A DNA stretch of 64,000 nucleotides from Gammaproteobacteria bacterium (GTDB lineage: Bacteria; Pseudomonadota; Gammaproteobacteria; Ga0077536), in contig CAXXLL010000002.1 of assembly GCA_963662545.2 (NCBI GenBank), positions 64,001 through 128,000 of the forward strand. The letters are read 5' to 3'. The notes under the pieces are model-generated. The model saw only the letters and a list, made by a program, of their open reading frames with translations, did not search any database and was not told where the DNA came from. Of this stretch, positions 8,575 through 29,217 are shown one piece after another. A program made the translations under genes and the position numbers. Positions within the stretch are counted from its first letter, which is position 1. Each line of letters begins with the position of its first letter.

Positions 8575-8581
8575 TTTATTC

Positions 8582-8657
<76 letters not shown>

Positions 8658-10874: not shown

Positions 10875-10914
10875 AGTGGCTCCGAATGGAAGCACTAATG
10901 CGCGGAACCGACTG

Positions 10915-11060
10915 GCCCGCGCGCGGCTAAGCAGCCGCCGCTCTTAGTGGTCGCAGCACTGAACGCTATTGAGTGACCGCTTCCGAGGGGATTGCAGACG
11001 TAATTCTAACTTGTGATGCACTACCGCGATTAGGCCGCTGACGACCCATAGGAGATATTC
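10915..11060 (+). repeat. tri-hairpin repeat, copy 1 (first unit degenerate)
   Basis: ..AGCCGCCGCTC..GTGACCGCTTCCGAGGGGATTGCAGACGT..TAGGCCGCTGACGACCCATAGGAGATATTC; about 80% identical to copy 2 over the 74-bp core. Confidence 0.8.
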
Positions 11061-11129
11061 GGAACTGCGCTATCCTCGACGTATTTATTCATTAGAGCCG
11101 ATTATGGGTGCTACAAAAGGAGTGAATTA

Positions 11130-11987
11130 ATGAACCGTTGGCTAATCGCGTGTGTGCTGCTGTGCTCTTGGATCAGCGTCCCGGCTGAGGAAACGAACGA
11201 ACCGGTGCTCGATGCACCCGAGAATGCCTACTGGCACGCCGGTTCGCAGTCCTGGTTCGTCTCCAGCCTAGGCGGTGGCTTGTCGCTTGAGGTGGATGGT
11301 TATGGCTGGGTTTCCCGTTTCGATGCCGCAGGCAAAATCGTTGAACCGCGATGGGTTGAAAACCTCGATGCGCCAACTGGAATGGGGGCAATGGGCGACC
11401 GGCTCTACGTTGCCGACCGCGGGCGCGTGCACGTCATCGACATCCCGTCGGCGCAAGTTGTCGCGACCATCCCGCTCCCCGGCGCGGAGTTTGTCAATGA
11501 TGTCGCCGTGGGTCCTGATGGCGCAGTCTATGTTTCGGATACCGCGACCAACCGGATTTATCGCATCGTCAACGGCGCTGCGTCGATATGGCTCGAATCG
11601 GAAGAACTGCAGAGCCCGAATGGGTTATGGCTGGACGGTGACACCTTGGTGGTCGCCGCGTGGGGACCGATGACTGACATCGAGACGTTCGCGACGAAGC
11701 ATCTGGGCACGCTGTTGCGGGTGGATTTAGACTCGAAGGCCGTGCAGCCGGTCGGAGTGGGAGCGCCTATCGCCAATTTCGATGGCGTGGTCACGGTAGG
11801 CAATTATTACTACGCCACCGATTGGACAGGGGGACGCCTGCTACGAATCGACCGCGAGGGTCGCGTCACCGTCGTTATGTCAGGCTTCAATCAGCTTGCT
11901 GACCTTGGCTATGACCCCGTGCGGGGGATCCTCGGCCTGCCCGTTATGAGTGATAACCGCTTCATCCTGCTGTTCCTTGATCGATGA
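11130..11987 (+). CDS. secreted SMP-30/gluconolactonase-like beta-propeller protein
   Basis: Signal peptide, LDAPEN, APTGM, LYVAD, VNDVAV..DG.VYVSDT, PNGL and FDGV repeats; AAGGAG RBS. Confidence 0.8.
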   Translation: MNRWLIACVLLCSWISVPAEETNEPVLDAPENAYWHAGSQSWFVSSLGGGLSLEVDGYGWVSRFDAAGKIVEPRWVENLDAPTGMGAMGDRLYVADRGRVHVIDIPSAQVVATIPLPGAEFVNDVAVGPDGAVYVSDTATNRIYRIVNGAASIWLESEELQSPNGLWLDGDTLVVAAWGPMTDIETFATKHLGTLLRVDLDSKAVQPVGVGAPIANFDGVVTVGNYYYATDWTGGRLLRIDREGRVTVVMSGFNQLADLGYDPVRGILGLPVMSDNRFILLFLDR

Positions 11988-12049
11988 GGGCAACGTCTGA
12001 AGAAGAGTCAGGACATTCGGAAACACGCAACGGTATTTTGAGTACTCAA

Positions 12050-12360
12050 ACGTTCGCTTTTTGGCCGACTGCCGCCGCCCTCCCTCAGTACTGCTTTGGA
12101 AGCAGCGGGAGGACCGCTTACGAGCGCATTGCAGACGTAATGCTTAGTAGTGCTGCACTGTCGCGATCAGGCCGTTGACGACCTATTCTGTTGAAAAAGT
12201 CCGATTCGCCGTCGGTCGCGACGTGTGCAGAAAAACCGACCGCGTAGGATCGCCTGTAAACGACGATCGGCACTCCGGGAACGGTTTAGCGACCCCCAAA
12301 TATATCGAAATCGCATGCGGTACGACTTTTTCAACACAATAGACCCTTTGCGGTCGCTCG
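12050..12360 (+). repeat. tri-hairpin repeat, copy 2 (interrupted by a MITE)
   Basis: Units start at 12050, 12110 and 12168; the third unit is split at GACC by a MITE. Confidence 0.8.
12184..12341. mobile_element. MITE A, copy 1 (158 bp, IS1182-like ends)
   Basis: TIRs TATTCTGTTGAAAAAGTC / GACTTTTTCAACACAATA, flanking GACC duplication, no transposase. Confidence 0.8.
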
Positions 12361-12504
12361 AAGTAATTCGCGATGGGCGTGGGAATTACCACATCGCCGT
12401 CTCAGTCCTGTCCCTACACTGACTTCCAAGAATCACATGGAACCCCCAATGCGGGCCGCGAAACGACCGTCGAGCGCCCCGGCAATGACTTGAAAGAGAG
12501 GACC

Positions 12505-12618
12505 ATGAGCACATTCAACGACCGGATCTCTGCCGCCACCACCACGCTCACAACGATAGCCCTCATCGCCCTTATAAGCTTCGGGGTAAGCGCGAGTCTG
12601 ACGCCGCTTGTCATCTGA
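12505..12618 (+). CDS. 37-aa single-TM small protein
   Basis: GAGAGGA RBS; MSTFNDRISAATTTLTTIALIALISFGVSASLTPLVI; the only credible ORF between repeat copies 2 and 3. Confidence 0.5.
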   Translation: MSTFNDRISAATTTLTTIALIALISFGVSASLTPLVI

Positions 12619-12676
12619 ACACAAGCTCCGCAACGAATATTTAGGGCCAAGGCAAAAACTTGCCTTGGTCACGTTC

Positions 12677-12985
12677 ACGTCTGCTTCTCGCCGAGAGCCG
12701 CCGCTCATCGCGGTCGCACCGCATAGCGCAACTCGACGACCGCTTATGAGTGTATTGCAGACCTACCGCTTAACAGTGCTGCACTGCCGCGATGAGGCTG
12801 CTACCGACCTATTCTGTTGAAAAAGTCCGATTCGCCGTCGGTCGCGACGTGTGCAGAAAAACCGACCGCGTAGGATCGCCTGTAAGCGACGATCGGCACT
12901 CCGGGAATGGTTTAGCGACCCCCAAATATATCGAAATCGTATGCGGTACGACTTTTTCAACACAATAGACCCTTTGCGGACATTC
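12677..12985 (+). repeat. tri-hairpin repeat, copy 3 (interrupted by a MITE)
   Basis: Units start at 12677, 12736 and 12794; the third unit is split at GACC by a MITE. Confidence 0.8.
12810..12967. mobile_element. MITE A, copy 2
   Basis: Differs from 12184-12341 at 3 positions; same TIRs and GACC duplication. Confidence 0.8.
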
Positions 12986-13027
12986 GCAATAACCGACCGC
13001 GCCTTGAAAACATCACTGCGTCCTGCT

Positions 13028-13240
13028 TTAAAGAAATTGAGCAACACGTTTGATATGCCCATCTGCGCCAAGCTCCTCGAAGAGCCGGTGAGCCTCACGC
13101 ATTTCGTCGTCGGCCGTCCACTCGCAATCGTAAGCCTCGGCGAAGGCCGCGCGGCATTCGTGCAGGAAGGGTTGATAAACGATCGCACCGGTCTCGTTTA
13201 TGATTGCTCCGTTTCGTCGAGCACCTCGCGCGCACCCTTG
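13028..13240 (-). pseudogene. C-terminal remnant of a large helical/TPR protein (resembles tails of adenylate cyclase-AAA proteins)
   Basis: Tail ..EMREAHRLFEELGADGHIKRVAQFL* with no credible start; family assignment is from memory. Confidence 0.35.
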
Positions 13241-13429
13241 TGATCGATGTCTCCGATTCGCACGCGCGCGAGCGCCAACCAGGGTTGCAGCGTCCATTTC
13301 AAGCCGCGCGGGCGGGAAAACGCCACCGCGTCTTCGGCGCACCGCCGCGCCTCACCGCCTTTCCCGCATGCCAGGTTCGCGGTTGCCAGGAACCCGAGCG
13401 CTGCGCCCCGGAACCAGCCACTTGCCCGA

Positions 13430-13790
13430 GTTTCGTCCGCGACGCGCAGGCACTCGCAGATGCCATTTCTAACCTACAGCAAGAAACTCGTCGTCAAGCG
13501 GTGACGATCACGCCAGTTCAACTGGCTGGCAACGAAATCTATGAGATCCTCAAGAAACGCCTCATCGATGAGATGCCTGACGAGCGGGTGCTCTCCGATG
13601 TAGCTCGAGAGTATGTCCAGCAGATCAAAAAAGCCGAAGATGGTGGCTACATCACGGCAACCGGCATTGAGCAAATCGCTGCGCAGGTTCGAGAAACTTA
13701 CCCGTTCCATCCGTCCTTCAAACACCTAGTGGCACTTTTCAAGGAAAGCAAAGGATTTAGGCAGACGGGCGGATTGATGCATCGTAGACG
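13430..13790 (+). pseudogene. internal fragment of a DUF499-type ATPase (anti-phage restriction-like systems)
   Basis: ITPVQLAGNEIYEILKKRL, YPFHP..K.LVALFKE..GFRQT.GLM; lacks N- and C-termini. Confidence 0.65.
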
Positions 13791-13984
13791 CCTTCGTTTC
13801 GATGTCGTCTAAGTATCCGCGCTTTTTGAATTGGCTTGAAGTTCTTGAGTATTGGAAAGAGAGATCTGGTGACCGAGCAGGGGGCAGAAAACAGAAAGAC
13901 AGTAAAAGGACGGAAGAGGTGACGGAGGGAACAATTTTAATCCCGCCGTCGCCCTTAATAATGCCTGCTCGCAGCCTGCTATTT

Positions 13985-14368
13985 TCAGGATGACGGGCTA
14001 TATCGATCTCCATTGATGATGGCGATTTTGCGGACGTTCTCCTGCATCTCAAAGGTTCCGGTAAATCCTTTTTTCAGCACCAGTGCCTGGCCCGGGTAAA
14101 ACTCCTCGAGATTTCCGTGCTCATCGGTAATCAAAATCTTGCCGCTCAGCAGATACATAAATTCATCGTGTGGATAATCTTCGAGCGCGAGCTTTGCCGG
14201 TTCCGCCTGGTAGGCGCCGACGAAGAGTTCATCGTGGGTAAATTGCCAACGTTGATGTTCGGACTTGCCTGACAGCACCACTTCGTCGGGGTAGGGGGCA
14301 AGCTCGTTTAAACCCAGACCGGCCAGTTTTTCCGGGTCCAGTCGGATCAGATTGTTGTTGGTTTTCAT
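13985..14368 (-). CDS. cupin-domain protein (EutQ/DUF861-like)
   Basis: G.YQAEP, YPHDEFMYLLSGKI.ITDE.G...F.PG..LVL.KGF.GTF; AAGGAG RBS. Confidence 0.8.
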   Translation of the reverse strand: MKTNNNLIRLDPEKLAGLGLNELAPYPDEVVLSGKSEHQRWQFTHDELFVGAYQAEPAKLALEDYPHDEFMYLLSGKILITDEHGNLEEFYPGQALVLKKGFTGTFEMQENVRKIAIINGDRYSPSS

Positions 14369-14394
14369 TGTGTTGCTCCTTTCGCCCGTTTCCG

Positions 14395-15027
14395 TTATGA
14401 CGATGCGACTTTGACTGCAAACGTTCGTCCACCCTCATTGGGAAGTCGCTCGATCATGGTTTCCACGATGCGGGTGCCCCGTGCTTTTGAATAACCTTCG
14501 GGATTCAGCAATGCCGCTATGCAGACGCCGTCCAGGACCGCGAACACCAAATCCAGAACATCGTCCGACGACTTGTCGACAAGGATTTCACCGTCATTGA
14601 TCGCGTCATGAAGATAAGACTTCAGCAGTCGGCGATATTCGTTTCTCTTTTTCTTATAGTCCGTTGCCAGTAGCGGATCGCTATTATTGCGAATGCCGAA
14701 ACACATCGACACGAATGCGACACTTTCGGGTCGTTTCTTGTCGGGAATGAGCGCTACGAGCGCGTTTCTAAGTCGCGTCAAGCCCGATGAAACAGCTTCA
14801 TTTGATTGCAGTATCCGGTCATTGGCATGCTGATATGCGAGATTGAATGCATATCTGAGAACGCTGTCTTTATCGCGGAAGTAGTGGGCGAACACACCGG
14901 TGGTGAACCCTACCTCGTCGGCAATATCCCGTAATCGAAGACGCTCGATCCCGACATCCTGTACTGCCGCCCACGTTGCCTGCGCGATCTCCGTTCGTCG
15001 CGCGTCGTGATCTACCAATTTCGGCAT
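14395..15027 (-). CDS. TetR/BetI-like transcriptional regulator
   Basis: MPKLVDHDARR.EI, RDIA.EVGFTTG.FAHYFRDKD HTH. Confidence 0.9.
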   Translation of the reverse strand: MPKLVDHDARRTEIAQATWAAVQDVGIERLRLRDIADEVGFTTGVFAHYFRDKDSVLRYAFNLAYQHANDRILQSNEAVSSGLTRLRNALVALIPDKKRPESVAFVSMCFGIRNNSDPLLATDYKKKRNEYRRLLKSYLHDAINDGEILVDKSSDDVLDLVFAVLDGVCIAALLNPEGYSKARGTRIVETMIERLPNEGGRTFAVKVASS

Positions 15028-15089
15028 ATTTCACTGCTCATCGAAGACAATGTTCGTCGGTATCCAATCTATCGGTTCTTGTTTTATTA

Positions 15090-15101
15090 TAATCATGATT
15101 A
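15090..15101. promoter_or_regulatory. candidate TetR operator
   Basis: Perfect palindrome TAATCATGATTA in the AT-rich divergent intergenic region upstream of the TetR gene. Confidence 0.45.
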
Positions 15102-15113
15102 CATAATAAAAGA

Positions 15114-16498
15114 GGGTCTACGCGGAAACGTGTGGGTTGATATTGGCATTTCTGGGTAGTGGCGGAAGAAATGCCGCAATGATTTTCAGTTTGAGGAATT
15201 CCTCATCACGATAGCCATAGGCGCGTCGTTGCAGGACCCGGATTTTGTTGTTGACCCCTTCGACCAATCCAAGACTGACTTTATTCTTAGCATCACAATA
15301 GGAAGCAATGCCATCCCAATGGGATTCAATCAGCTCAGCAAACTTGCGATACGGCGCCAATCGCTGCCATTTCAGACTGTCCTTCCAGCGCTCGAAAAAG
15401 GCACGCGCGCCGCGCTCGGTACGGTAGTCCCAGAGTTGGCCGAAGGTTTCCTTGAGGACGTAGGCGGTGTTCAGACGCCGGTTGGCCTGGAGCAGTTTTT
15501 TCAGGGCTCGTCTGCCATCCAGATTCAGGTTCTCGCGTCGCGAGAGCAAGGTATATCGCTGGCCTTTGATGTAACTCCTGTCCTTGCCGCGGAGACGTTT
15601 GTATTCACGGCGCCGGACTTCATCGAGAGCCTTTGAGAGGTGGCGCATGATATGGAACTTGTCATAGATGATCCGCGCCTGCGGTGCGTTGTTCATGACC
15701 GAGTTACGGAACGGCTTCCACATGTCCATCGCCGCCAGTTCGATGCGAGCGCTCTTGTTCTCGCCCAATGCCTGGAAAAACAGGTCGATGTCAGCCTCTT
15801 TGCGACCTTCACCACCGACCCAGATAGGACGCCCCCGATCCAGGTCACTGACGATGACCCGGTAGTTATGTCCTTTGCGGATGGAGATCTCATCAATACC
15901 GATGGCCCGGGGTGCTGGCATGCCCGCCAGCTCAACCTGCTTTTGCATGTACAGCTTATCGAGGTCTTTCACCGTGCTGTGGTGCAGGCGTTCCCTCTCG
16001 GCGACAGCCTGGTTCGGCATGTCCCGGCACAGCTTGCCCACCTGCATGGCAAAGCGCTGCGTATAGCGAGGGTTCTTTGCCAGCCAGTCAAGATGTTCTA
16101 CCTGCACGCCGCCGCACCTCCGGCAACTGACACGCCAGCGTTCGAACTCCAGGTAGATTCGCCATCCGGCAACTGACAGGTCTCGTACTCGCAGCACCTT
16201 CTTGTCGTAACGCCCGCGGCACCGGTGAGCACAGTGAGAACAGATCGCTGTTTTTTTCGCCTCTTGAGTTGGATCACACGGGCATACCGATCACCAAACA
16301 TGCCCACCAATTTCGATGCGGCGGTAAAACCAGGGAACGCAAACAGCGCTCGGATCGACTTGGGATTCTTCATGGCCTTAGCCTACCCACAAAATGAAAC
16401 CACTTTCACCCCATACGAAATCTCTGAATGTCTACATGATTTCAATGGTTTACACTTGGTCTAATTCAGAATTTACCCACATGAATCCGCGTAGACCC
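15114..16498 (-). mobile_element. ISL3-family insertion sequence
   Basis: IRs GGGTCTACGCGGA..GTGGG / CCCAC..TCCGCGTAGACCC; 8-bp TSD ATAAAAGA at 15106-15113 and 16499-16506. Confidence 0.92.
15118..16373 (-). CDS. ISL3 transposase split over two frames (probable -1 frameshift at an A7 run, 16251-16257)
   Basis: GIDE, MDMWKPF, DKFH and EGVNNKI motifs. A -1 shift joins ORF 16098-16373 to a CxxC zinc finger (TAICSHC) in the downstream frame. Confidence 0.85.
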
Positions 16499-16575
16499 AT
16501 AAAAGAAAAGATGATGTCGACACGATGAGCTTCATCGTCGAGGTCAAAACTCATGAAACGCGAGCCGCCCACTAG

Positions 16576-17874
16576 ATGACTATGAAAACAACGCCGCTGT
16601 GGTGGGAAGACAGCCTGCCGGTGCCGCTGGCCGACACCGAGCTGCCACAGCGCGTCGATGTCGCGGTGATCGGTGGCGGGTTCGCCGGCCTCAGTGCCGC
16701 GCTTGAACTGCAGCGGGCCGGAACACAGGTCGCCCTGATCGACAAACAATGGCCCGGCTATGGCGCATGCTCCAGAAACATGGGATTGGTAGTTGAGCGC
16801 GTCGATGGCAAAACGACCGGAGAACTGGACGCTGACCTACATGGTGTGCCGCGACACGAGTTGATTGCCGAAGGACAGCGCGCTTACGATTTTGTGCTGC
16901 ACCTCATAGACCGTGAACAAATCAGCTGCGGGTTAAGAGATCGCGGCAAGCTCGTACTGGCGACCACAAAATCTGCCTATGACAAGATGGCCCGGTATCT
17001 CGATCGTCACGAGAAAGTTTTTGGTGCCAACGACGCCTACATGATCCCCAGGGCCGACTTGCAAAAAGAAATTGGCGGCGAAGCGAGTCGCTATTATTAC
17101 GGCGGCAAGGTTCTCCCGAATCATCACGATCTGAATCCGGGTCAACTGACAGCCGGACTCGTTCAGGCGTTAACGAACACGGGCGCTTCCATCTGCACTG
17201 CCACTGAGTGTCTCGCGATGGAACGTCTACCGGATCATAAATTCCGGCTTAAGACCAACAAGGGCGAGACGGTCGCGGAACAAGTCGTTGTCACGACGCA
17301 GGGCTATTCCGGTGTTGGATCCGGCTCTCTGCGCCGTCAGATTTTTCCTTTTTTGGCTCACGTCGTTGCAACTGAACCACTCGACGCGGACCTGCTGAAT
17401 GAGTTGCTTCCGACCTTGCGTGGTGTTGTCGACACTAGACAGATGTTCTACAACTTCAGGCCTTGTGATCGAGAACAGCGGTTGCTGCTTGCTTCCAATT
17501 ACCTGCGAACGGATAGCGACGACGCTCAGGCGAGGAGAATACTTAAATCCTACAAGCGGCTGTTTCCACAACTGGAACACATCGATGCTGAGTATTGCTG
17601 GCACGGCAACCTCGCATTAACGGCTGATAGTCTCCCGCATATCGGTGCCGATAACGGCATCCATTATTGCGCGACGGGCAGCTTTTCGATGGCGCTTTAT
17701 CTGGGTTCCAAAATCGCGGATAGAATTCTTAATTATGATGATGCGCAAAGCGTACTCGACCGTATTCCACTACCCAATTTCCCTCTTTATAACGGCAACC
17801 CTGGATTGCTCTACGTCCTGTTGAGGCTCGTTTTCAACACCCTTGATGTCGCGAAGGTCGCCGCGCCGAAATAG
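16576..17874 (+). CDS. FAD-dependent amine/amino-acid oxidoreductase (DadA/PuuB-like)
   Basis: DVAVIGGGFAGLSAA, GACSRN.G, LNPG.L..GL, ATEPL and W.G...T.D.LPHIG motifs. Confidence 0.85.
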   Translation: MTMKTTPLWWEDSLPVPLADTELPQRVDVAVIGGGFAGLSAALELQRAGTQVALIDKQWPGYGACSRNMGLVVERVDGKTTGELDADLHGVPRHELIAEGQRAYDFVLHLIDREQISCGLRDRGKLVLATTKSAYDKMARYLDRHEKVFGANDAYMIPRADLQKEIGGEASRYYYGGKVLPNHHDLNPGQLTAGLVQALTNTGASICTATECLAMERLPDHKFRLKTNKGETVAEQVVVTTQGYSGVGSGSLRRQIFPFLAHVVATEPLDADLLNELLPTLRGVVDTRQMFYNFRPCDREQRLLLASNYLRTDSDDAQARRILKSYKRLFPQLEHIDAEYCWHGNLALTADSLPHIGADNGIHYCATGSFSMALYLGSKIADRILNYDDAQSVLDRIPLPNFPLYNGNPGLLYVLLRLVFNTLDVAKVAAPK

Positions 17875-17918
17875 CGGAAACTTCTCGCTGTTATTTAACT
17901 TTCCGGGAGCACGCTTGA

Positions 17919-19766
17919 ATGTTGTTACCACCCTATGACCCCCGTTTGATCATTGATCCATTAAGCGACGAGGAAATCGCAGGCGTCCCGGGCGCTGTTG
18001 ATCGCGGCCGCGAGGACATCGACCCGGTGGTGTTCTCGGTCGTTTACGCCCGGCTCGACGGCATCTTGAGCGAGATGACCGAGACTATCCTTACCACCGC
18101 GCGCAATCCCATCCTCTACGGCGCCAAGGATTTCACCTGCACGGTGATGAGTCCGCGCGCCGAGGTGCTATCCATGCACGACTGCCTTCCGATTCATGTC
18201 GGTACCATGGACCCTCCCCTTCGATTCCTCATCCGGGTGTTCGGCGAGGACATCCGCGAAGGCGATGTGTTCGTGAACAATGCTGCTTATGCGGGCAATG
18301 CACACGTCGGTGACTGGACCATGTTCGCACCTATTTTTCACGACGGCACGTTGGTGGCGTGGGCGGCCAACAAATGTCATTTGATTGATCTCGGGGCGCA
18401 CATACCGGGCAGTGTCGACGCCAGTGCCAGGGATGTTTACGAGGAAGCCATGCATTTCCCCGGCGTGCGCGTGTGCCGGGACCACAAGCCAATTGAGGAT
18501 CTGGTGCGATTTCTTGGCTACAACATTCGCTACCCGCAACACTGGTACGGTGATTTTCTGGCGCAGCTCGGCTCGTTGTGGACGGCGGAGAAGCGCATCA
18601 AGAGTCTCTGTGATCGCTTTGGCATCGATGTGGTGAAAGGCTGTTTTTCCGAAGCACTCAACTATGGCGAGCGCCGCATGATCGATGTAATCGGGAAGCT
18701 CCCTGTGGCCGATATCGAGGTCAGCATGATCGGGGAGATCTTCGAGGGGTTCTTTCCCGAAGGGGTCCCGCTCAAGCTCAAACTCAAGGTGATGCCTGAC
18801 GAAGGACGTATCGAGTTCGACTACACCGAGATGCCGGATCAACAGGCGTTCGGCTACAACCTGACCTATGCCACCGCGCGTTGTTCAGCGCTGCAGGGCA
18901 CGTTGCCGGTGCTCGACCCTGACATACCGACTAACGACGGTGCCTTGAAACGCATCAACGTGAAGCAACGCGAAGGGGCGCTCGCCGGGATCCCGCGCTG
19001 GCCGGTCGGTACGTCGCTGGCGACGATTGCGCTCTGTGACGAAGTCACCAATCTTGTGCTCAAGGCGTGGTCGCAGATCTTGCCGGAGCGAGCTATGGCC
19101 GGGATGGGTGAGTACTGCGCGGCGAACTTCATTGGTTCGGGGCGCAGCGCCGCGGGAGAGGATTACGCACACGCCTTTTATCTCGCCGCGAGCGGTGGCG
19201 GTGCGACCGGAAATCACGATGGTCTGCCCCACATGTTCGGCGCGTGCATCATGGGCAACATGGGCTACGAGTCGATCGAACAGCTGGAAATGGCGCGACC
19301 GTTCTACGTGCGAGAAGTCAGCGCGATCGCGGATTCCGGCGGCGTCGGCAAGTTCCGTGGTGCGGTCGGTGTACGTCAGCAGATCCAGCCGCGCGATCAC
19401 GTGATGAACATTAACTACGGTGGCTCGGGTCATACCTGTCCTGCGTTTGGCATCGGCAACGGGTCGCCCGGAGCGCTCGCCGATCACTGGGTGGAAGACG
19501 CGCTGAGCGGCGAGACGCTTACCGCACTCAGAAATTCAGGCAGCACCAATATTGAAGCCTCTGAGGTGTGGGTTGCCGACACCGGCGGCGGCGGAGGGCA
19601 CGGCGATCCGAGATCGCGCGATCCGCAAGCGGTGCTGGACGATGTGTGTGACGGTTTCGTCACGCTTGAAGCGGCAGAGCGTATTTACGGCGTGGTGCTG
19701 GTACCTGCTGACAACGGCTATCAGCTTGACGAAGCGGCGACCAAAACGCTGCGAGGTTCAGACTGA
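17919..19766 (+). CDS. hydantoinase B/oxoprolinase-family subunit
   Basis: EM....ARNPI..AKDF.C, EGDVF.NN..Y.G..H..D, HLIDLG, DSGG.GKFRG and TGGGGGHGDP.SR motifs. Confidence 0.9.
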   Translation: MLLPPYDPRLIIDPLSDEEIAGVPGAVDRGREDIDPVVFSVVYARLDGILSEMTETILTTARNPILYGAKDFTCTVMSPRAEVLSMHDCLPIHVGTMDPPLRFLIRVFGEDIREGDVFVNNAAYAGNAHVGDWTMFAPIFHDGTLVAWAANKCHLIDLGAHIPGSVDASARDVYEEAMHFPGVRVCRDHKPIEDLVRFLGYNIRYPQHWYGDFLAQLGSLWTAEKRIKSLCDRFGIDVVKGCFSEALNYGERRMIDVIGKLPVADIEVSMIGEIFEGFFPEGVPLKLKLKVMPDEGRIEFDYTEMPDQQAFGYNLTYATARCSALQGTLPVLDPDIPTNDGALKRINVKQREGALAGIPRWPVGTSLATIALCDEVTNLVLKAWSQILPERAMAGMGEYCAANFIGSGRSAAGEDYAHAFYLAASGGGATGNHDGLPHMFGACIMGNMGYESIEQLEMARPFYVREVSAIADSGGVGKFRGAVGVRQQIQPRDHVMNINYGGSGHTCPAFGIGNGSPGALADHWVEDALSGETLTALRNSGSTNIEASEVWVADTGGGGGHGDPRSRDPQAVLDDVCDGFVTLEAAERIYGVVLVPADNGYQLDEAATKTLRGSD

Positions 19767-21823: not shown

Positions 21824-21855
21824 TCCCTGGAGTGCGCGCCATGTCCGCTTTGGGC

Positions 21856-23084
21856 TGCGGATTCAACCAGTCGATGCAACATCTAATCTCTAGTCATCGA
21901 GAGGAGGATGTTGAACATGAAGTACAGACAGAGGACTTACTACAGCGAAACTGACAAGGCTCTAATGTGGGATCGCTGGCAGAAAGGCGAGTCTCTGCAG
22001 ACCATCGCTCAGCTTTTTAATCGAAATCATTCATCGATAGCTGGCGTGTTGTCGAGAACTGGGGGCATCCGTCCTCCTCAGCGAACCCGTTCAAGATCCG
22101 CACTAAGCTTGGCGGAGCGCGAGGACATCTCGCGGGGTGTTGTCACCGGCCATTCTGTTCGTTCGATCGCAGCAACGCTCGAGCGGTCGCCTTCTACGGT
22201 GAGCCGAGAGATCGCCCGTAACGGTGGCCGACAATGTTACCGCGCGAGCGAAGCTGACTTAGCCGCCTGGGATCGGGCGCCTCGTGCCAAGACCTGTAAA
22301 CTGGTACAGAACCGCGACCTGGCCCGCATCGTGGCGAGCAAACTCAAGAAGTTCTGGTCACCCGCGCAGATTGCTGGCTGGTTGAAGCAAACGTATCCGC
22401 ACGATGAGAACATGCAGGTGTCGCACGAGACCCTCTATCGCAGTCTATTCATTCAAGCCCGTGGCGCCTTGAAGAAAACGCTGCTACAGCACCTCAGGCG
22501 AACACGTGCGATGCGTCGTTCGCGCCATCACACACAGAAGACCGATGATCACGGCAGGATTAGTAACGCAATCTCGATCAGCGAGCGTCCGCCATCGGTG
22601 GAAGACCGGGCCGTGCCAGGGCATTGGGAAGGTGATCTGATCTTCGGTTCGAACAACAGCCAGATCGCGACCTTGGTCGAGCGCCATACGCGTTACGTCA
22701 TGATGGCAAAGGTCAACGGCAAGGACACTGAGACGGTGATAAACGCGCTAATCAAACACGCACACAAGTTACCAAACGAACTCTACAAATCACTCACCTG
22801 GGATCGTGGCAAGGAAATGGCTGATCACGAGCGCTTTACGTTAGCGACCGATATCAAGGTGTACTTCTGTGATCCTCAAAACCCTTGGCAACGAGGCTCA
22901 AACGAAAACACGAACGGTCTTCTCAGGCAGTCCTTCCCGAAGGGAACGGACCTGTCGGTTCATTCGCAAGCCAAGCTCAATACGGTCGCACGGCAACTCA
23001 ACGAACGACCTAGAAAAACGCTAGACTTTGAAACACCGGCGCAACGTTTTAGCCAATGTGTTGCATCGACTGGTTGAATCCGCA
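21856..23084 (+). mobile_element. IS30-family insertion sequence, inserted in a hairpin repeat
   Basis: Perfect 26-bp IR TGCGGATTCAACCAGTCGATGCAACA; flanked by GGGC on both sides. Confidence 0.92.
21908..23077 (+). CDS. IS30 transposase
   Basis: RSPSTVSREI.RN, WSP.QI.G, VSHET.Y, GHWEGD, TWDRGKE, PWQRGSNENTNGLLRQ and LN.RPRK motifs. Confidence 0.93.
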   Translation: MLNMKYRQRTYYSETDKALMWDRWQKGESLQTIAQLFNRNHSSIAGVLSRTGGIRPPQRTRSRSALSLAEREDISRGVVTGHSVRSIAATLERSPSTVSREIARNGGRQCYRASEADLAAWDRAPRAKTCKLVQNRDLARIVASKLKKFWSPAQIAGWLKQTYPHDENMQVSHETLYRSLFIQARGALKKTLLQHLRRTRAMRRSRHHTQKTDDHGRISNAISISERPPSVEDRAVPGHWEGDLIFGSNNSQIATLVERHTRYVMMAKVNGKDTETVINALIKHAHKLPNELYKSLTWDRGKEMADHERFTLATDIKVYFCDPQNPWQRGSNENTNGLLRQSFPKGTDLSVHSQAKLNTVARQLNERPRKTLDFETPAQRFSQCVASTG

Positions 23085-23118
23085 GGGCTAAACGGACGTG
23101 GGCTTAATCGACAGCTTC

Positions 23119-23472
23119 TTATTCCTCTTCCCCACCCTCCGGCCATAGTGCCCTACCAAATATTGCCTTCGTCACAGCATTCCCGATCAGCACAAACAAG
23201 AACATCGTCGTTGCTTCTATCGGCACTGCTTCGGACCCTCTTGCACATATCCAATAGCTGAGTGTAATTCCGTACAGGTTTCCGATAGCTACGCAGGCGC
23301 ACAGATACGAATTGAAGCGCACATCCATTAAGATTGCCCCTACGGCTGTCAGAATGAACGGTACCGCGCTTCCTATATGGTGGTGCGCTAGTGGGACCAT
23401 CGTGACGGGTCGCGTGGGCGTGGCCGTGATTTCAGTGTTCGTGATTGATGGCCGTATTGACGAATCGAACAT
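23119..23472 (-). CDS. possible small membrane protein or remnant
   Basis: Three hydrophobic stretches in the C-terminal part; start uncertain; no family recognised. Confidence 0.25.
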   Translation of the reverse strand: MFDSSIRPSITNTEITATPTRPVTMVPLAHHHIGSAVPFILTAVGAILMDVRFNSYLCACVAIGNLYGITLSYWICARGSEAVPIEATTMFLFVLIGNAVTKAIFGRALWPEGGEEE

Positions 23473-23580
23473 GCGACAACTACCAGAGAATCCTACCCCA
23501 AAAAATGAACGTAAATGTTCTCTTCCTATAACACCACGGTCATTCGTTATCAGAGTAGTAGACGGATAAGTTGACCTCTT

Positions 23581-24852
23581 ATGTCGAAAGACTGCCCGCC
23601 AAAAGTTGTTATTGTTGGCGCCGGCTTCGGCGGATTGTTTGCTGCCAAAGCATTATCAAGGGTTCCGGCCGATGTCATCTTGGTTGATCGCCATAACTAT
23701 CATCTGTTTCAACCCTTGCTTTATCAGGTTGCGACGGCCGGCTTGGCGCCTTCTGATATTGCCTGGCCGATCAGATCTATTTTGACCCGACAGCGCAATG
23801 TATCGGTCCTATTAGGCGACGTGCAAAGTGTGGATATGGACAAGCGACTGGTGAACTTCAAGGACGAGCGCATCGAATTTGATTACCTTGTCCTGGCGAC
23901 GGGAGCCCGGCATTCATATTTTGGCAATGATGAGTGGAGTCACTCTGCCCCAGGCTTAAAGAGTATTAATGATGCAACTGCCATTCGCCGCCGCCTGCTG
24001 CTGGCATTTGAGCAAGCGGAATCATGCAACGACCTGAGTGAACGTGAGCGTTTGCTGCGATTCTTAATCGTCGGTGCCGGTCCCACGGGAGTTGAGCTCG
24101 CAGGGGCAATAGCGGAACTGGCACACTTTACTTTAGCCGCGGACTTCCGGCGCATTGACCCACGCAGCGCCAAGGTCCTTCTCGTGGAAGCCGGATCGCG
24201 AGTATTACCGACCTTTGATGAATCTAGTTCGAAGTATGCAAAAAAGGCCTTGGAACGACTGCACGTAGAAGTTCGGCTCAATTCACCCGTTACTCATTGC
24301 GACGCTAGTGGGGTCGTGATTGGCGATGAAAAAGTCGATGCGGCAACAACACTCTGGGCCGCTGGCGTAGCAGCTTCTCCAGTCGGCGACTGGCTAGGTG
24401 CGGAGACCGACCGAGCTGGGCGAGTAATAGTAAAACCAGACCTGTCCATCGAAGACGCGCCTAATGTTTTTGTGATTGGCGATGCTGCAGCCGTCACGGA
24501 TTCACGGGGTGTCCAGGTGCCAGGGATCGCACCAGCTGCAAAGCAACAGGGCCGGTACGTTGCCAGAATTATTGGCTCACGAATCAATGGGGGGGGCAAA
24601 CCGCCGCCGTTCCGCTATCGGCATTCCGGAAACCTGGCAACAATCGGCCGTAAATCCGCCGTAATTGAGTTTCCTTTGTTGCACCTCAAAGGCTTCCTGG
24701 CCTGGTGGATCTGGGGAGTCGCGCACATCTACTTTTTAATAGGCCTGCCGAGCCCTCTAATGGTTTCATTCCGCTGGCTCTGGGAATACATCACCTACAG
24801 CCGCGGTGCCCGGCTAATCACGGGTAAAGACCAGAATGCTGGTCATGGATGA
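23581..24852 (+). CDS. ndh: type II NADH dehydrogenase-like FAD oxidoreductase
   Basis: GAGFGG, HLFQPLLYQVATAGL, GAGPTGVELAGAI, WAAGV, IGD, PGIAPAAKQQG and GNLATIGR motifs. Confidence 0.9.
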   Translation: MSKDCPPKVVIVGAGFGGLFAAKALSRVPADVILVDRHNYHLFQPLLYQVATAGLAPSDIAWPIRSILTRQRNVSVLLGDVQSVDMDKRLVNFKDERIEFDYLVLATGARHSYFGNDEWSHSAPGLKSINDATAIRRRLLLAFEQAESCNDLSERERLLRFLIVGAGPTGVELAGAIAELAHFTLAADFRRIDPRSAKVLLVEAGSRVLPTFDESSSKYAKKALERLHVEVRLNSPVTHCDASGVVIGDEKVDAATTLWAAGVAASPVGDWLGAETDRAGRVIVKPDLSIEDAPNVFVIGDAAAVTDSRGVQVPGIAPAAKQQGRYVARIIGSRINGGGKPPPFRYRHSGNLATIGRKSAVIEFPLLHLKGFLAWWIWGVAHIYFLIGLPSPLMVSFRWLWEYITYSRGARLITGKDQNAGHG

Positions 24853-25082
24853 ATTTGAGACGCCGACCGCAACAGAAGTAATTCAGCGGTTGAACTCCAC
24901 AATGCTGCGAGTATTCTCGAGTTTGAGAGTTTTGGCTTTGAGTGATTCGACCTTCCCGGCAACTTGAAGCCGACCGAACTTTCCCGAAAACAGTTATCGG
25001 AGCCCCACGTTCCACGCGCCGGCAGGCCGCATAATTACTAAAACGTCAAATCAGAACTTTCCCGAAAAGGGGTATTTTCGAG

Positions 25083-25111
25083 ATGACCGCTTAGCACCCG
25101 AAAGCGACCGT
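25083..25111 (+). repeat. single hairpin unit of the repeat family
   Basis: ATGACCGCTTAGCACCCGAAAGCGACCGT between ndh and the CehA-like gene. Confidence 0.6.
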
Positions 25112-25328
25112 GACCGACGATGCAAATACCTCGGTCATAAACGGATGTCCTCGGATACTCGGCGACGCCCGAAAGTTTAATAATTTGGGCGGTGTATCCG
25201 GGAACCAAGGGAGTGAAATTCCTGGTTTTTAAACTGGCGTTTAGCTCCCCTAAGTTCCGTTCAGGTTTCGCGATCGTCTGCGACCGAAATCCGTTTTAAT
25301 TTCGCGGCTGTTAATCGTTTGGGCAGGT

Positions 25329-27056
25329 CTATTTCATTAGCGCCTTAAAGTAATTTTTCGATACTTCAATTTCTTTTAGCAACGCCGCGCGGTTTTTCCG
25401 CAAAATTTCCTCAGGCACCGCATCCATGGTCGGGTTCTCAAGTTTCGCGGCCAGAAAGTCAAGATTGTCTTCCGCGAGGACGCGCTCGAGGTCGTTCAAT
25501 CTCGCTATAAATGCTTGGGCGACGATCCTGGTGCGTGCGCTTTTCTCTATTCCGGGGCGATTCTTGATTGAGACATACACGGGTGCGGAATGGAATGTGC
25601 TGTTCGGCGCGAAGGTGCCAAAGATAATCGGTGTGGCGAACGGGACTTCATCGATTCGAGCGCCGTAGCCTCTCATGGCAAGCCAGGAACCATTCTCGAT
25701 CCGGCGCTTTACCGAGAATTCGATTGTTGCGGCGTTGCCGACGCGCGAGATGCGCTCGACGACGTTGCCGTTATGAATGAGTTCAACGAAGCTGACGTCG
25801 TCTCGTGTCGGGTCAAAGGCGACGCTGCCGGAAATTTCCACGTCGGATGGCGTGTCGAGCTCTATGGTGCTGCCAATATCGCCACCATTCACGCGAAATT
25901 CTACGAGCGGACCCGTCGTTACGAATGTGCGACCTTGACGCACGCCTTCCAGCCATTTTGCGTAGGTCAACGGTCCGTCGACTTTGGTGTAAAACCGTTC
26001 GTGCCCCGGAATGACCTGCCCGCCACAGGGGTAGTCGGTACCGGCGGTCGGTGTAATGCGCAGGCCAAGTGCAAGCAGGTCGTACCAGACGTCATAACCA
26101 CTACGATCGAACTGCAACACCTCGAGAAAATGAAGCAAACCGTGCGGTACGACGACCGCCATGCCGTCGTGAGGGGCGATAAATGAAGCATAGGGAAATA
26201 CCGCGTGCGCGAATCCGTTAAGTGCGCCTTCCTTAACAGTCTGTTCCCAAATAAGGCGGTAGATCAGGTACTGGTCCTCATTGAAGTGCGTCTTTTCCGC
26301 ACCCAATGTGATGGTGTGGCCGAGGAAGTGTGTTCGCGGGTTTTCCTGACCGGCGGCCAAAATGTAGTGTCCCTCTTGATAATGACTGTCTGGTCCGTGC
26401 GCGTATTGGTGCGCAATGCCGAAGTCGCCGACTTTCCCCATCTGAAGCAGATTGGCGACGTGAACGTCTTCGGCCTGCATCATTTTTGATACGTCGTGAT
26501 TGTGCGCAGCGCTTGGTCGCTGAATATGCAGGTGATCGTCGCCGCTGTACCAGCCCTTTTGTGGCATGTTGATCCAGCGGGTCAAACTGATTTCCAGATC
26601 AACGTTGTCGGCTTTAGAAATCTCGACGTTTGCCTCCGCGACCTTGTATTCGGGGCCTTTGAATACACGAACGTTTGCCGATCCGGCTGGCAGCCTGAGG
26701 GTTGACGTTCCCGCACTATAGAACTGCGTAGACTTGGTGTAGGGATTTTCTATGCCAACACGGCCGGAGTAAGCGGGGACCGACGCAGCATCATCCAGCA
26801 GTCCGGCGCCCGGTTTGCTCATCGTGCAATCACCGCTGTAGGCGAGCGCATTGTCGGCGACGAAGTACTCTCCGTTGGCGCCCTGGACTTCCAAACGCGC
26901 CGGCACGATGGCGCCGGATTCGGCGTCTTTGAGCGTCAGGCGTAGTGTCCCCATACCCTCCTGCGCATGAAGTGTGTGAGAACCCGTCGCAATGACGATG
27001 GACAGGATCAGCGCACGTTCAAAGTCGCGGTTAGTCAGACGCCACAATGGAATCAT
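25329..27056 (-). CDS. secreted CehA/McbA-family (PHP-like) metallohydrolase
   Basis: Signal peptide, KGPEY, GWYSGDDHLH, GH, FAHA, TAGTD and W.EG.RQGRTFVTTGP motifs. Confidence 0.8.
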   Translation of the reverse strand: MIPLWRLTNRDFERALILSIVIATGSHTLHAQEGMGTLRLTLKDAESGAIVPARLEVQGANGEYFVADNALAYSGDCTMSKPGAGLLDDAASVPAYSGRVGIENPYTKSTQFYSAGTSTLRLPAGSANVRVFKGPEYKVAEANVEISKADNVDLEISLTRWINMPQKGWYSGDDHLHIQRPSAAHNHDVSKMMQAEDVHVANLLQMGKVGDFGIAHQYAHGPDSHYQEGHYILAAGQENPRTHFLGHTITLGAEKTHFNEDQYLIYRLIWEQTVKEGALNGFAHAVFPYASFIAPHDGMAVVVPHGLLHFLEVLQFDRSGYDVWYDLLALGLRITPTAGTDYPCGGQVIPGHERFYTKVDGPLTYAKWLEGVRQGRTFVTTGPLVEFRVNGGDIGSTIELDTPSDVEISGSVAFDPTRDDVSFVELIHNGNVVERISRVGNAATIEFSVKRRIENGSWLAMRGYGARIDEVPFATPIIFGTFAPNSTFHSAPVYVSIKNRPGIEKSARTRIVAQAFIARLNDLERVLAEDNLDFLAAKLENPTMDAVPEEILRKNRAALLKEIEVSKNYFKALMK

Positions 27057-27260
27057 CGATTCGCTCCCTTATCCGATTCGAGTTCGCCTAGCGTAAGGCA
27101 TGTACGCGTCATTGTAGAGCGCCTAACTGAGAACAGACTGACGCGATAACTATCTGCGCCGTGTAGTGGAGCTAAGCAATCCTCGAGTACCGCGAGCTAT
27201 TAGCACTCGCGCAAAGTAGCGGGCGGGATGATTAGTGCACCGATACGTCCGTTTCGGGTC

Positions 27261-27419
27261 CAGGCTGTCCGAAAACTAATTTCGATTTTGGAAAGTGGGG
27301 TATGCGTTATCCAATTTGATCAATTTGCGCAGTGTGGTCCCTAATTTATCTGCTATGGGGACAACAAGTGGGGAAACTTTTCGTCGCGTAACGATTTTTC
27401 GGAGTTTTCGGACAGCCTG
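27261..27419. mobile_element. MITE B (159 bp), inserted in a hairpin repeat
   Basis: TIRs CAGGCTGTCCGAAAACT / AGTTTTCGGACAGCCTG, GGTC duplicated on both sides. Reconstructed empty site: ACGTCCGTTTCGGGTCGTCAGCGTGGT. Confidence 0.8.
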
Positions 27420-27516
27420 GGTCGTCAGCGTGGTAGTACGGTGCCAGATATTACGGGGACAAATTACTTAATCATGCCAAGCCGGTCCGTTCGGTATGAG
27501 CCGCGTGGCAATTAGT

Positions 27517-29217
27517 TAGTGTCCGTCCATAAACAGGCATTTTCTTCGATGGGCACGGAGAAATCGAGGTGTTGAAAGTAGGTTGTTGGAGCGGTAGCGG
27601 CGGTTCGGTGGGGGTCGAAGGGCTCTTCGAGCGTAATTGTGAGTACGTTCGCCGGCCGCAGAGCGCTGCAACCCAAAGTCGCCCGTTCGACGATATCGAG
27701 GAGGTCAGTTAGTGCGAGTGAACGTCGCTATTCGAGTTGATAGCGCGCGAGCAGGCTGAGGTTGTAGGCGACCACAGAAGACCACACGTAGGCTTCGAAG
27801 TGCGGCAGGCTCTTCCAGGTGCAACGTGCCAATCCGTATGCACGCTTCAGGCAGGAGATACCGGCCTCGATGCCGGCGCGGAAGTTGCGCAAGCGTCGAT
27901 AGACCCACTGACTCTTGACCATGTCGGCGATCGCGAGCCCGCGCTTCTTGTGGAAGGCAACGTCTTCGATGCCTTCTGCTTTCGCCGCCCGGAGATTGTC
28001 GAGGCTCGCATAGCCGCCATCGGCGGCGACCTGTCGTGGCATCGTCCCGTAGTGTGTTCGATGCCGTTCGAGCATCGGCATGAAGCGCTGACTATCGACC
28101 GGATTGCCTCGCTCGATGACCACGTCGAGGATGAGGCCACTGCGCCCCGAAGCCAGATTGATTTTGTGTCCGTACTGAACGTCGCGCGCACCCTTTATGA
28201 TGATGTCGGTATGCGGCTCGAACAAGCTCACGCACTTCTCGCTCGCGGGGACCTTCTCACCGCCGAACACCCGCCGCTCAGTTTGCGAAATCACCTGCAG
28301 AACAAGTGTTTCGTAGTGCGCTACCTGCGCTAGCCAGTCCGGCAGTTCAACGCCGGTGACGCCCGGGCTCAGCAGCTGCTCACGTACCCTCGCTACCGCT
28401 TCCAAGGTTGAACGCGTCGCCCCAATCAAATCGCGATACAGACGTTGGCGTTGCTTCGCACCACGCGCATACCACAGCGCCCGCGCACGCTTCTTCGCCA
28501 ATCGAGTGTGGTTCACGAAGCACAACTCCGGCGCGCCAGGCAACTCGCGCGCCTGTGCGAGCAGACGAACCACAACACGCACGCCATCCCACAGCAGATG
28601 ACTGTCGCTCGGCGCGTGGATGGCACTGTCCGTTACCGTGCTATCAATCCGTACACGCTGTGCCGGCTCAATGCGCGTCTCTTTCGCCGTCGCCAGCAGG
28701 GCGCGATGAATAGACTCCCACGTCGATACCTGGATCGCCGAGACCACCCGCTGTAAGGCAGACTTCTTCGGACGTTCATTACCCGGCAACCGGGCGAAGG
28801 CCTGAAAGCTCGCCGAGTCCTGCAGGTGAAAGGCCAGCTCCTCGTAACTCAATTGCCGGTGCTGCTTGAGCACCGCGCAGCGCAGCACCGACTCCGCCGA
28901 CAGTCCGCGTCGACCGGTGGGCTTCAAACCCCGCCGACACAGATCGTTCATGACCGGCGTGAGGACCTTGGGGTGAGCATCGAGCCACTCGGACATGCCC
29001 TGCAGCTCTCGCCCCAGGTCATGGTCAGCAAACAGCTCGTATATACTCGCTTGGGCCGTGCGTTTCTGACGCATTCCCCCTCCTGTGGTGTCGATGATTG
29101 TGTGGAAAATCAGAGGTTTGAAGTTCCATTAGATCACGACCCACCGGAGGTTTCGATCCCTTAAGCGACAAATTTTCCTTTTTATTTCAACCGCATCGCG
29201 TTTAGGGATGCACACTA
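27517..29217 (-). mobile_element. ISNCY/IS5-like insertion sequence
   Basis: Imperfect IRs TAGTGTCCGTCCATAAAC / GTTTAGGGATGCACACTA around the transposase. Confidence 0.7.
27728..29074 (-). CDS. ISNCY-family DDE transposase
   Basis: RIDSTV....IHAPSDS.LL, SLFEPHTDII.KG, YGHK, ADGGY and FRAGIEAGIS.LKR motifs. Confidence 0.9.
   Translation of the reverse strand: MRQKRTAQASIYELFADHDLGRELQGMSEWLDAHPKVLTPVMNDLCRRGLKPTGRRGLSAESVLRCAVLKQHRQLSYEELAFHLQDSASFQAFARLPGNERPKKSALQRVVSAIQVSTWESIHRALLATAKETRIEPAQRVRIDSTVTDSAIHAPSDSHLLWDGVRVVVRLLAQARELPGAPELCFVNHTRLAKKRARALWYARGAKQRQRLYRDLIGATRSTLEAVARVREQLLSPGVTGVELPDWLAQVAHYETLVLQVISQTERRVFGGEKVPASEKCVSLFEPHTDIIIKGARDVQYGHKINLASGRSGLILDVVIERGNPVDSQRFMPMLERHRTHYGTMPRQVAADGGYASLDNLRAAKAEGIEDVAFHKKRGLAIADMVKSQWVYRRLRNFRAGIEAGISCLKRAYGLARCTWKSLPHFEAYVWSSVVAYNLSLLARYQLE

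Follow-up and report, generated by a model that had tools for sequence, protein, structure and literature searches.

A genus-restricted 160-bp repeat as a candidate recombination joint of co-oriented, cassette-like gene arrays in a gammaproteobacterium

To our knowledge, the storage and reshuffling of genes as cassettes between oriented recombination sites is well understood only for integrons. Here we describe a non-coding repeat of about 160 bp, built from three dyads, that punctuates unrelated gene modules in the 5.58-Mb genome of a gammaproteobacterium (lineage Ga0077536, assembly GCA_963662545.2; hereafter G000, with contigs C2 and C3). Three copies lie in a stretch of 64,000 nucleotides (contig CAXXLL010000002.1, positions 64,001 to 128,000; hereafter the window), where a first-pass annotation had proposed that they may be recombination sites used to acquire and shuffle gene modules. 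Analysis of the whole genome and of two other genomes of the genus (G001 and G002) confirms that observation in part and partly supports its interpretation. The closest known systems are, in architecture, integron attC arrays and clusters of attC sites lacking integron integrases (CALINs) and, in kind of sequence, repetitive extragenic palindromes and bacterial interspersed mosaic elements (REP/BIME) or Neisseria-type mosaic repeats; for each of them defining features fail. The passages returned by a full-text literature search held no description of such arrays.

The arrays resemble integron attC arrays and CALINs in having co-oriented sites of ~60-160 bp that punctuate unrelated accessory genes (here, 10 of 12 arrays are strand-uniform), in having cassettes that are common to, and reordered between, arrays, and in having sites that are targeted by specialised insertion sequences (IS) and group II introns, as described for attC (PMC3001079). 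The repeat differs from attC in having no single-strand hairpin, in forming arrays that are not beside IntI, and in lacking the RYYYAAC/GTTRRRY boxes, whose absence, pointed out in the first-pass annotation, holds for the three window copies and for a consensus of 71 genomic copies. Furthermore, attC cassettes mostly hold one promoterless open reading frame (ORF) in the direction of the array, whereas modules here are often multi-gene and lie on either strand; the two modules in the window do fit the attC pattern. The genome's own integrons bear out the separation from attC and IntI. Specifically, G000 has two true IntI genes (TIGR02249; 462.5 and 461.1 bits, cut-off 265), at C2:996723-997664 and C3:1527239-1528180, and the nearest repeat arrays are ~112 kb and ~52 kb away, respectively. 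The IntI at C2:996723 belongs to a chromosomal integron with its own array, upstream of IntI, of at least 11 canonical attC sites of ~125 bp (..CCTAAC...GTTAGGY; L025:2348-15556). The 17 kb upstream of the gene at C3:1527239 (L026) yielded no family of attC-like repeats; an ISL3 copy is present at C3:1522893-1524243.

Neisseria dRS3 elements, 20-bp units that flank 50-150-bp non-coding segments, are associated with rearrangement and mobile-element insertion, and pdif sites have a 6-bp spacer and alternate in orientation. The present repeat is set apart from both by description and not by sequence: dRS3 elements flank non-coding segments and are not joints between gene modules, while pdif sites are 28-bp XerC/XerD sites, unlike a 160-bp triple dyad with spacers of 10-12 nucleotides (nt) that is co-oriented and chromosomal. 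Shared with dRS3 and the intergenic mosaic elements of Neisseria are short tagged palindromes in large clusters (PMC3733652), and shared with the pdif (Xer) modules of Acinetobacter plasmids are short dyad sites that bound gene modules, with IS targeted beside them (PMC10132070). REP/BIME likewise consist of short palindromic units with fixed linkers, are lineage-specific and are IS hot spots (PMC1525189), and a CGTC-tagged REP super-family carries a CGTC/TGTC tag such as that found at many arm ends here (PMC3733652). However, 93% of the copies occupy 5% of the genome, are strand-uniform over tens of kb and have no RAYT association, unlike REP/BIME, and the arms of ~7 bp and spacers of 10-12 nt contrast with the 8-9-bp stems and 4-5-nt loops of the CGTC-tagged families (PMC3733652).

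Two further comparisons concern mobile elements. Tandem accretion at tRNA attachment (att) sites also yields tRNA- or integrase-headed islands in which direct repeats separate successive modules, but here the direct repeat bears no relation to the 3′ end of the tRNA, one and the same repeat follows four different tRNAs, and the modules that it separates have no integrases of their own. As in miniature inverted-repeat transposable elements (MITEs), the repeat has terminal inverted repeats, is shorter than 300 bp and is non-coding; neither a target-site duplication nor a pair of filled and empty sites was found in the small sample compared.

A triple-dyad repeat in co-oriented arrays

The consensus of the repeat, derived from 71 near-full-length genomic copies, is 160 nt long and contains three imperfect dyads, D1 (positions 11-36), D2 (positions 71-96) and D3 (positions 129-153), 60 and 58 nt apart, so that the three-dyad build with 58-60-nt spacing described from the window holds genome-wide. 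The three ~150-bp repeats reported after the integrase and AlpA-like genes of the window are real: a repeat search relates three copies of 117 nt at 70-72% identity, and the MAFFT alignment has a mean column identity of 78%. The copies, the MITEs inserted into them and the modules between them are as follows.

10905-11062, plus strand: repeat copy 1 (nhmmer match 10932-11058, model positions 28-154, E = 7.5e-33; alignment)
11130-11987, plus strand: module 1, a 285-aa beta-propeller protein, SGL/NHL-like (Pfam SGL 26.5 bits, NHL 25.5 bits)
12042-12182, plus strand: repeat copy 2, main part, with D1, variable region, D2 and left half of D3 (nhmmer match 12054-12198, model positions 13-157, E = 1.8e-37)
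12183-12342, no strand: 160-bp MITE with 19-bp terminal inverted repeats in the D3 spacer of copy 2 (inverted-repeat search)
12343-12357, plus strand: 3′ tail of copy 2, the right arm of D3, pushed away by the MITE (read from the sequence; agrees with the consensus 3′ end)
12505-12618, plus strand: module 2, a putative 37-aa hydrophobic ORF (from the sequence; no Pfam match)
12668-12808, plus strand: repeat copy 3, main part (nhmmer match 12673-12825, model positions 6-158, E = 2.2e-36)
12809-12968, no strand: second copy of the 160-bp MITE, at the equivalent D3 position of copy 3 (inverted-repeat search)
12969-12986, plus strand: 3′ tail of copy 3 (read from the sequence)

Copy 1 lacks the first ~27 model positions, corresponding to the left arm of D1, and copies 2 and 3 are each interrupted by the 160-bp MITE 13-15 nt before the 3′ end, a feature overlooked in the first-pass annotation. 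Exactly one ORF lies between successive copies, as had been described, although the start of the 37-aa frame had been placed one base off.

The dyad arms are about G.CCGCT / AGCGG.C, with ~7 bp per arm and spacers of 10-12 nt, to which the suggested analogy with a 28-bp tyrosine-recombinase core fits poorly. Positions ~32-62 form a variable stretch with several subfamilies, and the 3′ two-thirds of the repeat are conserved. The outermost arms constitute imperfect terminal inverted repeats of 8-10 bp (TGTCCGCT...AGCGGACA). Single-strand DNA folds are unremarkable (z-scores of +0.12, +0.59, -0.52, +0.28, -2.02 and -0.70 for six folds against shuffled sequences), RNAalifold gives no consensus structure on either strand for the 71 copies, Rfam at the gathering threshold gives no match in the repeats, and blastn of copy 2 against plasmid and phage collections gives no match. 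A "mini" repeat of ~75-85 bp, with the termini of the 160-bp repeat (GTCCGCT...AGCGGAC) and a different interior, occurs in six copies (G000 C2:246990-247067, 1218031-1218115, 1116032-1116109, 1609144-1609207 and 675252-675326; C3:1279407-1279484), two of which are in or beside arrays.

A profile built from the three window copies has 117 matches in G000, and a profile built from the 71 copies has 123, of which 114 lie within 12 arrays totalling 291,463 bp (5.2% of 5.58 Mb), rather than in the even, REP-like scatter that the first-pass annotation had named as grounds for refutation. Ten arrays are strand-uniform (33/33, 17/17, 11/11, 9/9, 8/8, 7/7, 4/4, and 3/3 three times), and the remaining two each comprise two opposed blocks. 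The same co-orientation is observed elsewhere: 14/14 copies on one G001 contig, 3/3 on a G002 contig, 3/3 in L062 and 2/2 in L108. Within arrays the copies are spaced at a median of 2.26 kb (range 215-13,349 bp), and the intervals hold from zero to about nine ORFs on both strands, encoding small enzymes, many family-less proteins and many IS. Because genes lie on both strands within the intervals, repeat orientation is independent of transcription, which argues against a terminator or 5′-untranslated-region role. The position of the repeat at module boundaries in co-oriented arrays is thus borne out, mainly by evidence from outside the window. C2:2587605-2591134, at the end of contig 2, is identical, as the reverse complement, to C3:8971-12500, close to where contig 3 begins, so that the two contigs probably join there; C2:2582224/2584888 duplicate C3:913741/916405.

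The repeat is restricted to the genus in the genomes compared: blastn finds it in 2/2 other genomes of the genus, 0/22 other genomes of the family and 0/16 genomes of the other families of the class. An exact-pattern scan of 185,579 species, with one genome per species, returned 10 stretches. Full copies are present in 6 of them, which belong to two assemblies labelled Pseudomonadota/Gammaproteobacteria and to two short contigs from bins assigned to Chloroflexota and Poribacteria; the other 4 contain only chance-like matches of 25-46 nt. In a metagenome pattern scan, 3 of 8 stretches (L103, L106 and L108) contain true copies.

The arrays are situated in IS-rich islands and often start at a tRNA gene, an integrase gene or both. 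In particular, four arrays (three in G000, one in G002) start downstream of a tRNA gene in the same orientation.

Window: tRNA-Lys, integrase and alpA
C3:887208: tRNA-Met and an intact 422-aa integrase at C3:884173, 85% identical to that of the window (C3:883923-885438)
C3:16162: tRNA-Ser at C3:20983
G002 contig: first copy 0.74 kb after tRNA-Sec, with no integrase between them

Two further heads, C3:354899 and C3:1449909, follow tyrosine recombinases of ~180 aa that are 94% identical to each other, one of them split by an IS. The remaining heads examined lack both a tRNA and a recombinase. A pmoCAB/amoCAB-type copper monooxygenase operon (AmoC, AMO, Monooxygenase_B; L017:16697-19534, G000 C2:751697-754534) is situated about 2.7 kb past the head of the largest array.

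Module junctions and insertion hot spots within the repeat

Comparison between arrays and between genomes reveals modules that are shared, with junctions inside the repeat. Module 1 of the window (11081-12160) has a 96-97% identical counterpart in the array at C3:927755-929981, among different neighbours; the repeat downstream of it (copy 2) is identical to the copy at C3:929875 through model position 31 and falls to the usual family level from there on, placing the breakpoint at 31/32. Similarly, three different G000 arrays contain the G001 modules 8511-10171, 16769-18744 and 36085-37676 at 92-96% identity, and in each of the two genomes the module ends are within or beside repeats. At the solitary copy C2:247855, segments are ordered B-R-A in G000, where a G002 contig has the permuted order R-A-R-X-B-R, and the G000 repeat is a hybrid that switches, between about positions 125 and 145, from matching one G002 repeat to matching another. 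The prediction that homologous cargo elsewhere would have its synteny breakpoints within the repeat is therefore borne out between arrays, between genomes and between gene orders.

All 10 mapped breakpoints fall inside the repeat: at positions 26-32 (two), ~95-112 (two or three), ~110-126 (two or three) and ~138-150 (three). The crossovers are scattered along the repeat, which looks more like homology-guided exchange than like a single fixed site of crossover. The three solitary copies that were examined are all at synteny breaks relative to G001 and G002, and none of these three loci, a small sample, gives a pair of filled and empty sites in the comparison with those genomes. Nor is a target-site duplication apparent: for the 32/140 copies with recognisable ends, the mean best flank match is 1.97, against 1.95 +/- 0.20 for shuffled pairings. 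Public assembled contigs of 4 runs, compared with window positions 8400-15000, gave apparent joints at 11004-12141 and 12727-12778; these carry other letters between the two sides and are therefore other genomic copies partly matched, a result that is silent on circles and deletions.

The repeat is itself a hot spot for insertion. An inverted repeat of an IS or MITE family is present in the D3 spacer (after ..GACGACCC) in 36/140 copies and at the mirror position of D1 in 13/140. Specifically, 13/15 left ends of an IS1182-like IS (478-aa transposase with DUF772 and DDE_Tnp_1 domains) and 17/23 left ends of the related MITE-A abut ..GACGACCC. The 160-bp MITE has about 7 genomic copies; 3/6 of its left-end contexts end in GACGAC (D3), and the other three are dyad-like by eye only. 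The D3 spacer also holds a group II intron, on the opposite strand (RF02003, 100.8 bits; RF00029, 36.1 bits, under the gathering score of 40), with junctions ..GTCCGTTATGGGT|GTGCG.. and ..CTCTA|CCGATAGCC..; the 3′ junction is present in three copies and the 5′ end in two. For an IS91-like element encoding an Xer-like integrase and a Y2 transposase, 2/3 right ends abut the right arm of D3.

The outer dyads, D1 and D3, thus behave as structured targets, with spacers that receive insertions of an IS1182-like IS, of two MITE families, of a group II intron and of an IS91-like element. Comparable targeting is described elsewhere: attC sites are targeted by group IIC-attC introns and specialised IS (PMC3001079), inverted repeats in general are targeted by IIC introns (PMC1702495), REPs are insertion hot spots of IS (PMC1525189), and beside the pdif sites that bound discrete gene modules IS insertion is specifically targeted (PMC10132070). 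That a DDE-type IS, MITEs, a rolling-circle-type element and a group II intron independently target one small DNA structure makes the recognised feature, whether hairpin, bound protein or sequence, directly testable.

The IS91-like elements, with the Xer-like integrase upstream of the Y2 transposase, lie at C2:613247-629350, C2:1616923-1618957, C3:6945-8835 and C3:921389-923279. All six IS91-like matches are in or beside arrays, in the opposite orientation to the array, and several are copies of one another.

Homology-guided exchange and its alternatives

About 5% of this genome has the architecture of an integron with different sites and without an integron integrase, and its modules have demonstrably been exchanged between arrays and between species of the genus. 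Co-orientation, tRNA/integrase heads and module junctions inside the repeat all fit the central idea of the first-pass annotation. We give about an even chance to the reading that the repeat, a genus-restricted mosaic element, is the recombination joint of cassette-like arrays and that exchange is guided by homology. The data establish the family, its arrays and their co-orientation, the sharing of modules with breakpoints inside the repeat, and the insertion hot spots. On this reading modules enter, leave and change places at the repeats. Two direct copies next to each other would recombine and release a circle carrying one hybrid repeat, and the circle could re-insert by a single crossover with any other copy, in the manner of Campbell; with such insertion all copies would stay co-oriented automatically, and Campbell-type insertion together with reverse excision would be the simplest mechanism to explain co-orientation. 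The crossover would be made by RecA or by template switching, rather than by a dedicated recombinase at one fixed site. Since the observed crossovers fall anywhere along the conserved part of the repeat, exchange looks homology-guided; scattered crossover positions and the failure to find a co-occurring recombinase both speak for homology. If exchange is indeed homology-guided, short lineage-specific repeats alone can build integron-like gene banks.

The search for a recombinase covered three families, none of which co-occurs with the repeat in relatives. P4-type integrases have relatives (65% identity) in repeat-free genomes or a repeat-free genome, and none was found in G002. Searches of G001 and G002 recovered neither the small recombinase of ~180 aa nor the IS91-type integrase; of the three G000 copies of the former, one is distant from every array, and the latter is present in three repeat-free genomes. 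The first-pass suggestion that a tyrosine recombinase of the island acts as the engine also loses ground in the window itself, where the integrase beside the copies is frameshifted. The IS91-like elements were rejected as an engine: apart from their absence from the searches of G001 and G002, their ends are merely inserted at D1 or D3.

Several points weigh against homology-guided exchange. The relatives are fragmented (89% complete in 20 contigs; 3.0 Mb in 150 contigs), and multi-copy mobile genes may be unassembled; failure to find a recombinase in them is therefore weak evidence. Several arrays start right after tyrosine-recombinase genes, with the 94% identity at two heads noted above. Breakpoint resolution is coarse, and the positions can also be read as three sites near the dyads (D1 ~26-32, D2 ~95-112, D3 ~126-150), which would favour a site-specific enzyme. 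The copies are only 70-85% identical over ~100 nt, making them a poor RecA substrate, and homologous recombination of direct repeats should erode arrays, not build arrays of 33 copies. No circle, deletion or insertion polymorphism was observed directly. Finally, overlapping contig ends and a duplicated segment cause at least three of the 123 copies to be counted twice.

Many of these points return as arguments for a dedicated, non-integron, site-specific cassette system, in which a recombinase would recognise the dyads, excise circles and insert them at other copies, as IntI does with attC. We regard such a system as rather improbable. Candidate enzymes are the P4-type integrases, the ~180-aa head recombinases, the Xer-like integrase of the IS91-like elements and a host Xer-type enzyme. 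An enzyme of this sort would suit the integron-like architecture, with a tRNA/integrase head followed by a co-oriented and often long array, and the relatedness of recombinases between heads (two small ones 94% identical, two P4-type ones 85% identical); three arrays start with a copy that lacks the first 26-30 positions, close to the breakpoints at 26-32. Grouping of the breakpoints near the three dyads, the low identity between copies, which disfavours RecA, and the targeting of the dyads by other mobile elements, as described for attC (PMC3001079) and pdif (PMC10132070), point the same way. Nevertheless, three recombinase families show no co-occurrence and the window integrase is frameshifted, the breakpoints are not at a single position, 5′-truncated copies also occur inside arrays, and arms of 7 bp around a spacer of 10-12 nt are unlike the established tyrosine-recombinase cores. 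In its most specific form, this would be a second, integron-independent kind of gene cassette, with a 160-bp triple-dyad site, a dedicated recombinase, one crossover site per dyad, multi-gene modules and tRNA-linked arrays of up to at least 33 sites, a proposal that we put forward as tentative and doubtful. If an enzyme is involved, it would represent a new recombination system.

It is equally improbable, in our view, that the repeat is a selfish non-autonomous transposon of MITE or REP type, which would spread by itself with a preference for islands and provide homology for rearrangement as a secondary effect. Small size, lack of coding capacity, imperfect terminal inverted repeats and restriction to one genus are as expected of such an element, as are subfamilies with the same termini and different interiors, including the mini form in 6 copies, and the CGTC/TGTC tag that many copies share with one REP super-family (PMC3733652). 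In contrast, neither target-site duplication nor a filled/empty pair was found among the loci compared, solitary copies lie at synteny breaks, and strand uniformity over 93 kb is unexpected from transposition. The stems and loops are unlike those of the CGTC REP families, and seven Y1 transposase genes (Y1_Tnp matches) are without a flanking dyad motif, each having 0-2 arm motifs within 900 bp, near the background of 0.6 per kb.

A cis-acting element whose direction is kept for its function, either a platform for a dimeric DNA-binding protein (insulator, partition-like or nucleoid-organising) or a small-RNA gene whose 5′ part varies while its 3′ scaffold is conserved, is very unlikely: three dyads at ~60-nt (about 5.5-turn) spacing, conserved 3′ two-thirds together with a variable internal segment and orientation independent of neighbouring genes would suit it, but there is no stable or conserved fold on either strand and no Rfam match at the gathering threshold, and the repeat is confined to accessory islands, with 49/140 copies disrupted by insertions.

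Single units, island head and neighbouring genes in the window

The first-pass annotation had claimed five single units of the repeat at other cargo boundaries, of which the unit at 27245 is a real relic, whereas those at 21841, 25083, 11992 and 38831 are at noise level. When the complete model is run against the window by nhmmer --max, with E values up to 100 allowed, only the three copies score; the next match is 27430-27403 (E = 0.2), and 25080-25093 has E = 7.9. With separate models of the 5′ and 3′ ends, only 27405-27430 beats the reversed-sequence control (3′-end model, E = 0.017 against a best control of 1.9; the best control E values of the two models are 0.5 and 1.9); 21841-21854 has E = 49, and units 11992 and 38831 give no match. 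The unit at 25083 is by eye similar to a short variant and lies beside an IS91-like left end, with a poor alignment of 52% mean identity. The relic is as follows.

27243-27432, minus strand: remnant of the last ~30 nt of a copy (27419-27432 and 27243-27261), split at the D3 hot spot by a 157-bp MITE at 27262-27418 (from the sequence and the 3′-end model)

Inside 10915-27430, real copies bracket only two modules, not all of the cargo. Genome-wide counts of dyads with 2-200-nt spacing do not exceed a wrong-order control (11 against 16 with at most 1 mismatch per 9-mer arm; 2304 against 2359 with at most 2), and a hairpin census with exact 7-mer arms gives 7 pairs against 10 in the control, looser censuses also being without enrichment. 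A small dyad, ACGTCTGA..TCAGGACAT, at 11985-12040, ~60 nt upstream of D1 of copy 2, continues the 58-60-nt spacing; it is part of the module common to C3:929875 and is not conserved in other copies.

Upstream of the repeats, the window contains, in order, four tRNA genes, a split integrase, an int-alpA motif, a 134-aa ORF and a weak AlpA-like ORF.

8582-8657, plus strand: tRNA-Lys(CTT), the last of the four tRNA genes and the head of the island with the three copies (ARAGORN, Rfam)
8831-10055, plus strand: P4-type tyrosine integrase, frameshifted, ORFs 8831-9220 and 9192-10055 (Arm-DNA-bind_3, Phage_int_M and Phage_integrase divided over both ORFs; stops inside the match)
10070-10135, plus strand: int-alpA RNA motif (Rfam RF02996, 45.8 bits against a gathering score of 35.8)
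10599-10874, plus strand: small AlpA-like ORF, weak match (Phage_AlpA, E = 0.021, 15.1 bits, under the cut-off of 21)

The idea of an attL site formed by a tRNA-derived direct repeat was rejected: the 23-mer at the 3′ end of tRNA-Lys occurs once only in the window, with up to 3 mismatches allowed. A first, uninformative search for a T-arm motif gave 8 matches against 3.2 expected.

The second half of the 37-aa ORF of module 2 is strongly hydrophobic, like a small membrane peptide, and has no family match. An ISL3-family IS with a 359-aa transposase lies at 15113-16499 and has more than 20 near-identical copies in the genome. At 23085-23264 is a non-coding repeated segment of ~270 bp (~80% identity) that adjoins IS91-like left ends; its other sites are G000 C3:6550-6821, C3:923640, C2:654827-655065 and C3:388631-388902. 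A type I restriction-modification set at 29208-34723 (S and R subunits with a YgjP-like peptidase) and a TIR-STAND NTPase gene at 39195-40730 constitute defence-type cargo within the composite island of the window. An IS3 element has its ALIL frameshift pseudoknot at 47235-47351. A second P4-type integrase, intact and of 414 aa, is directly beside the tmRNA gene (49812-51583), marking a separate island at ssrA.

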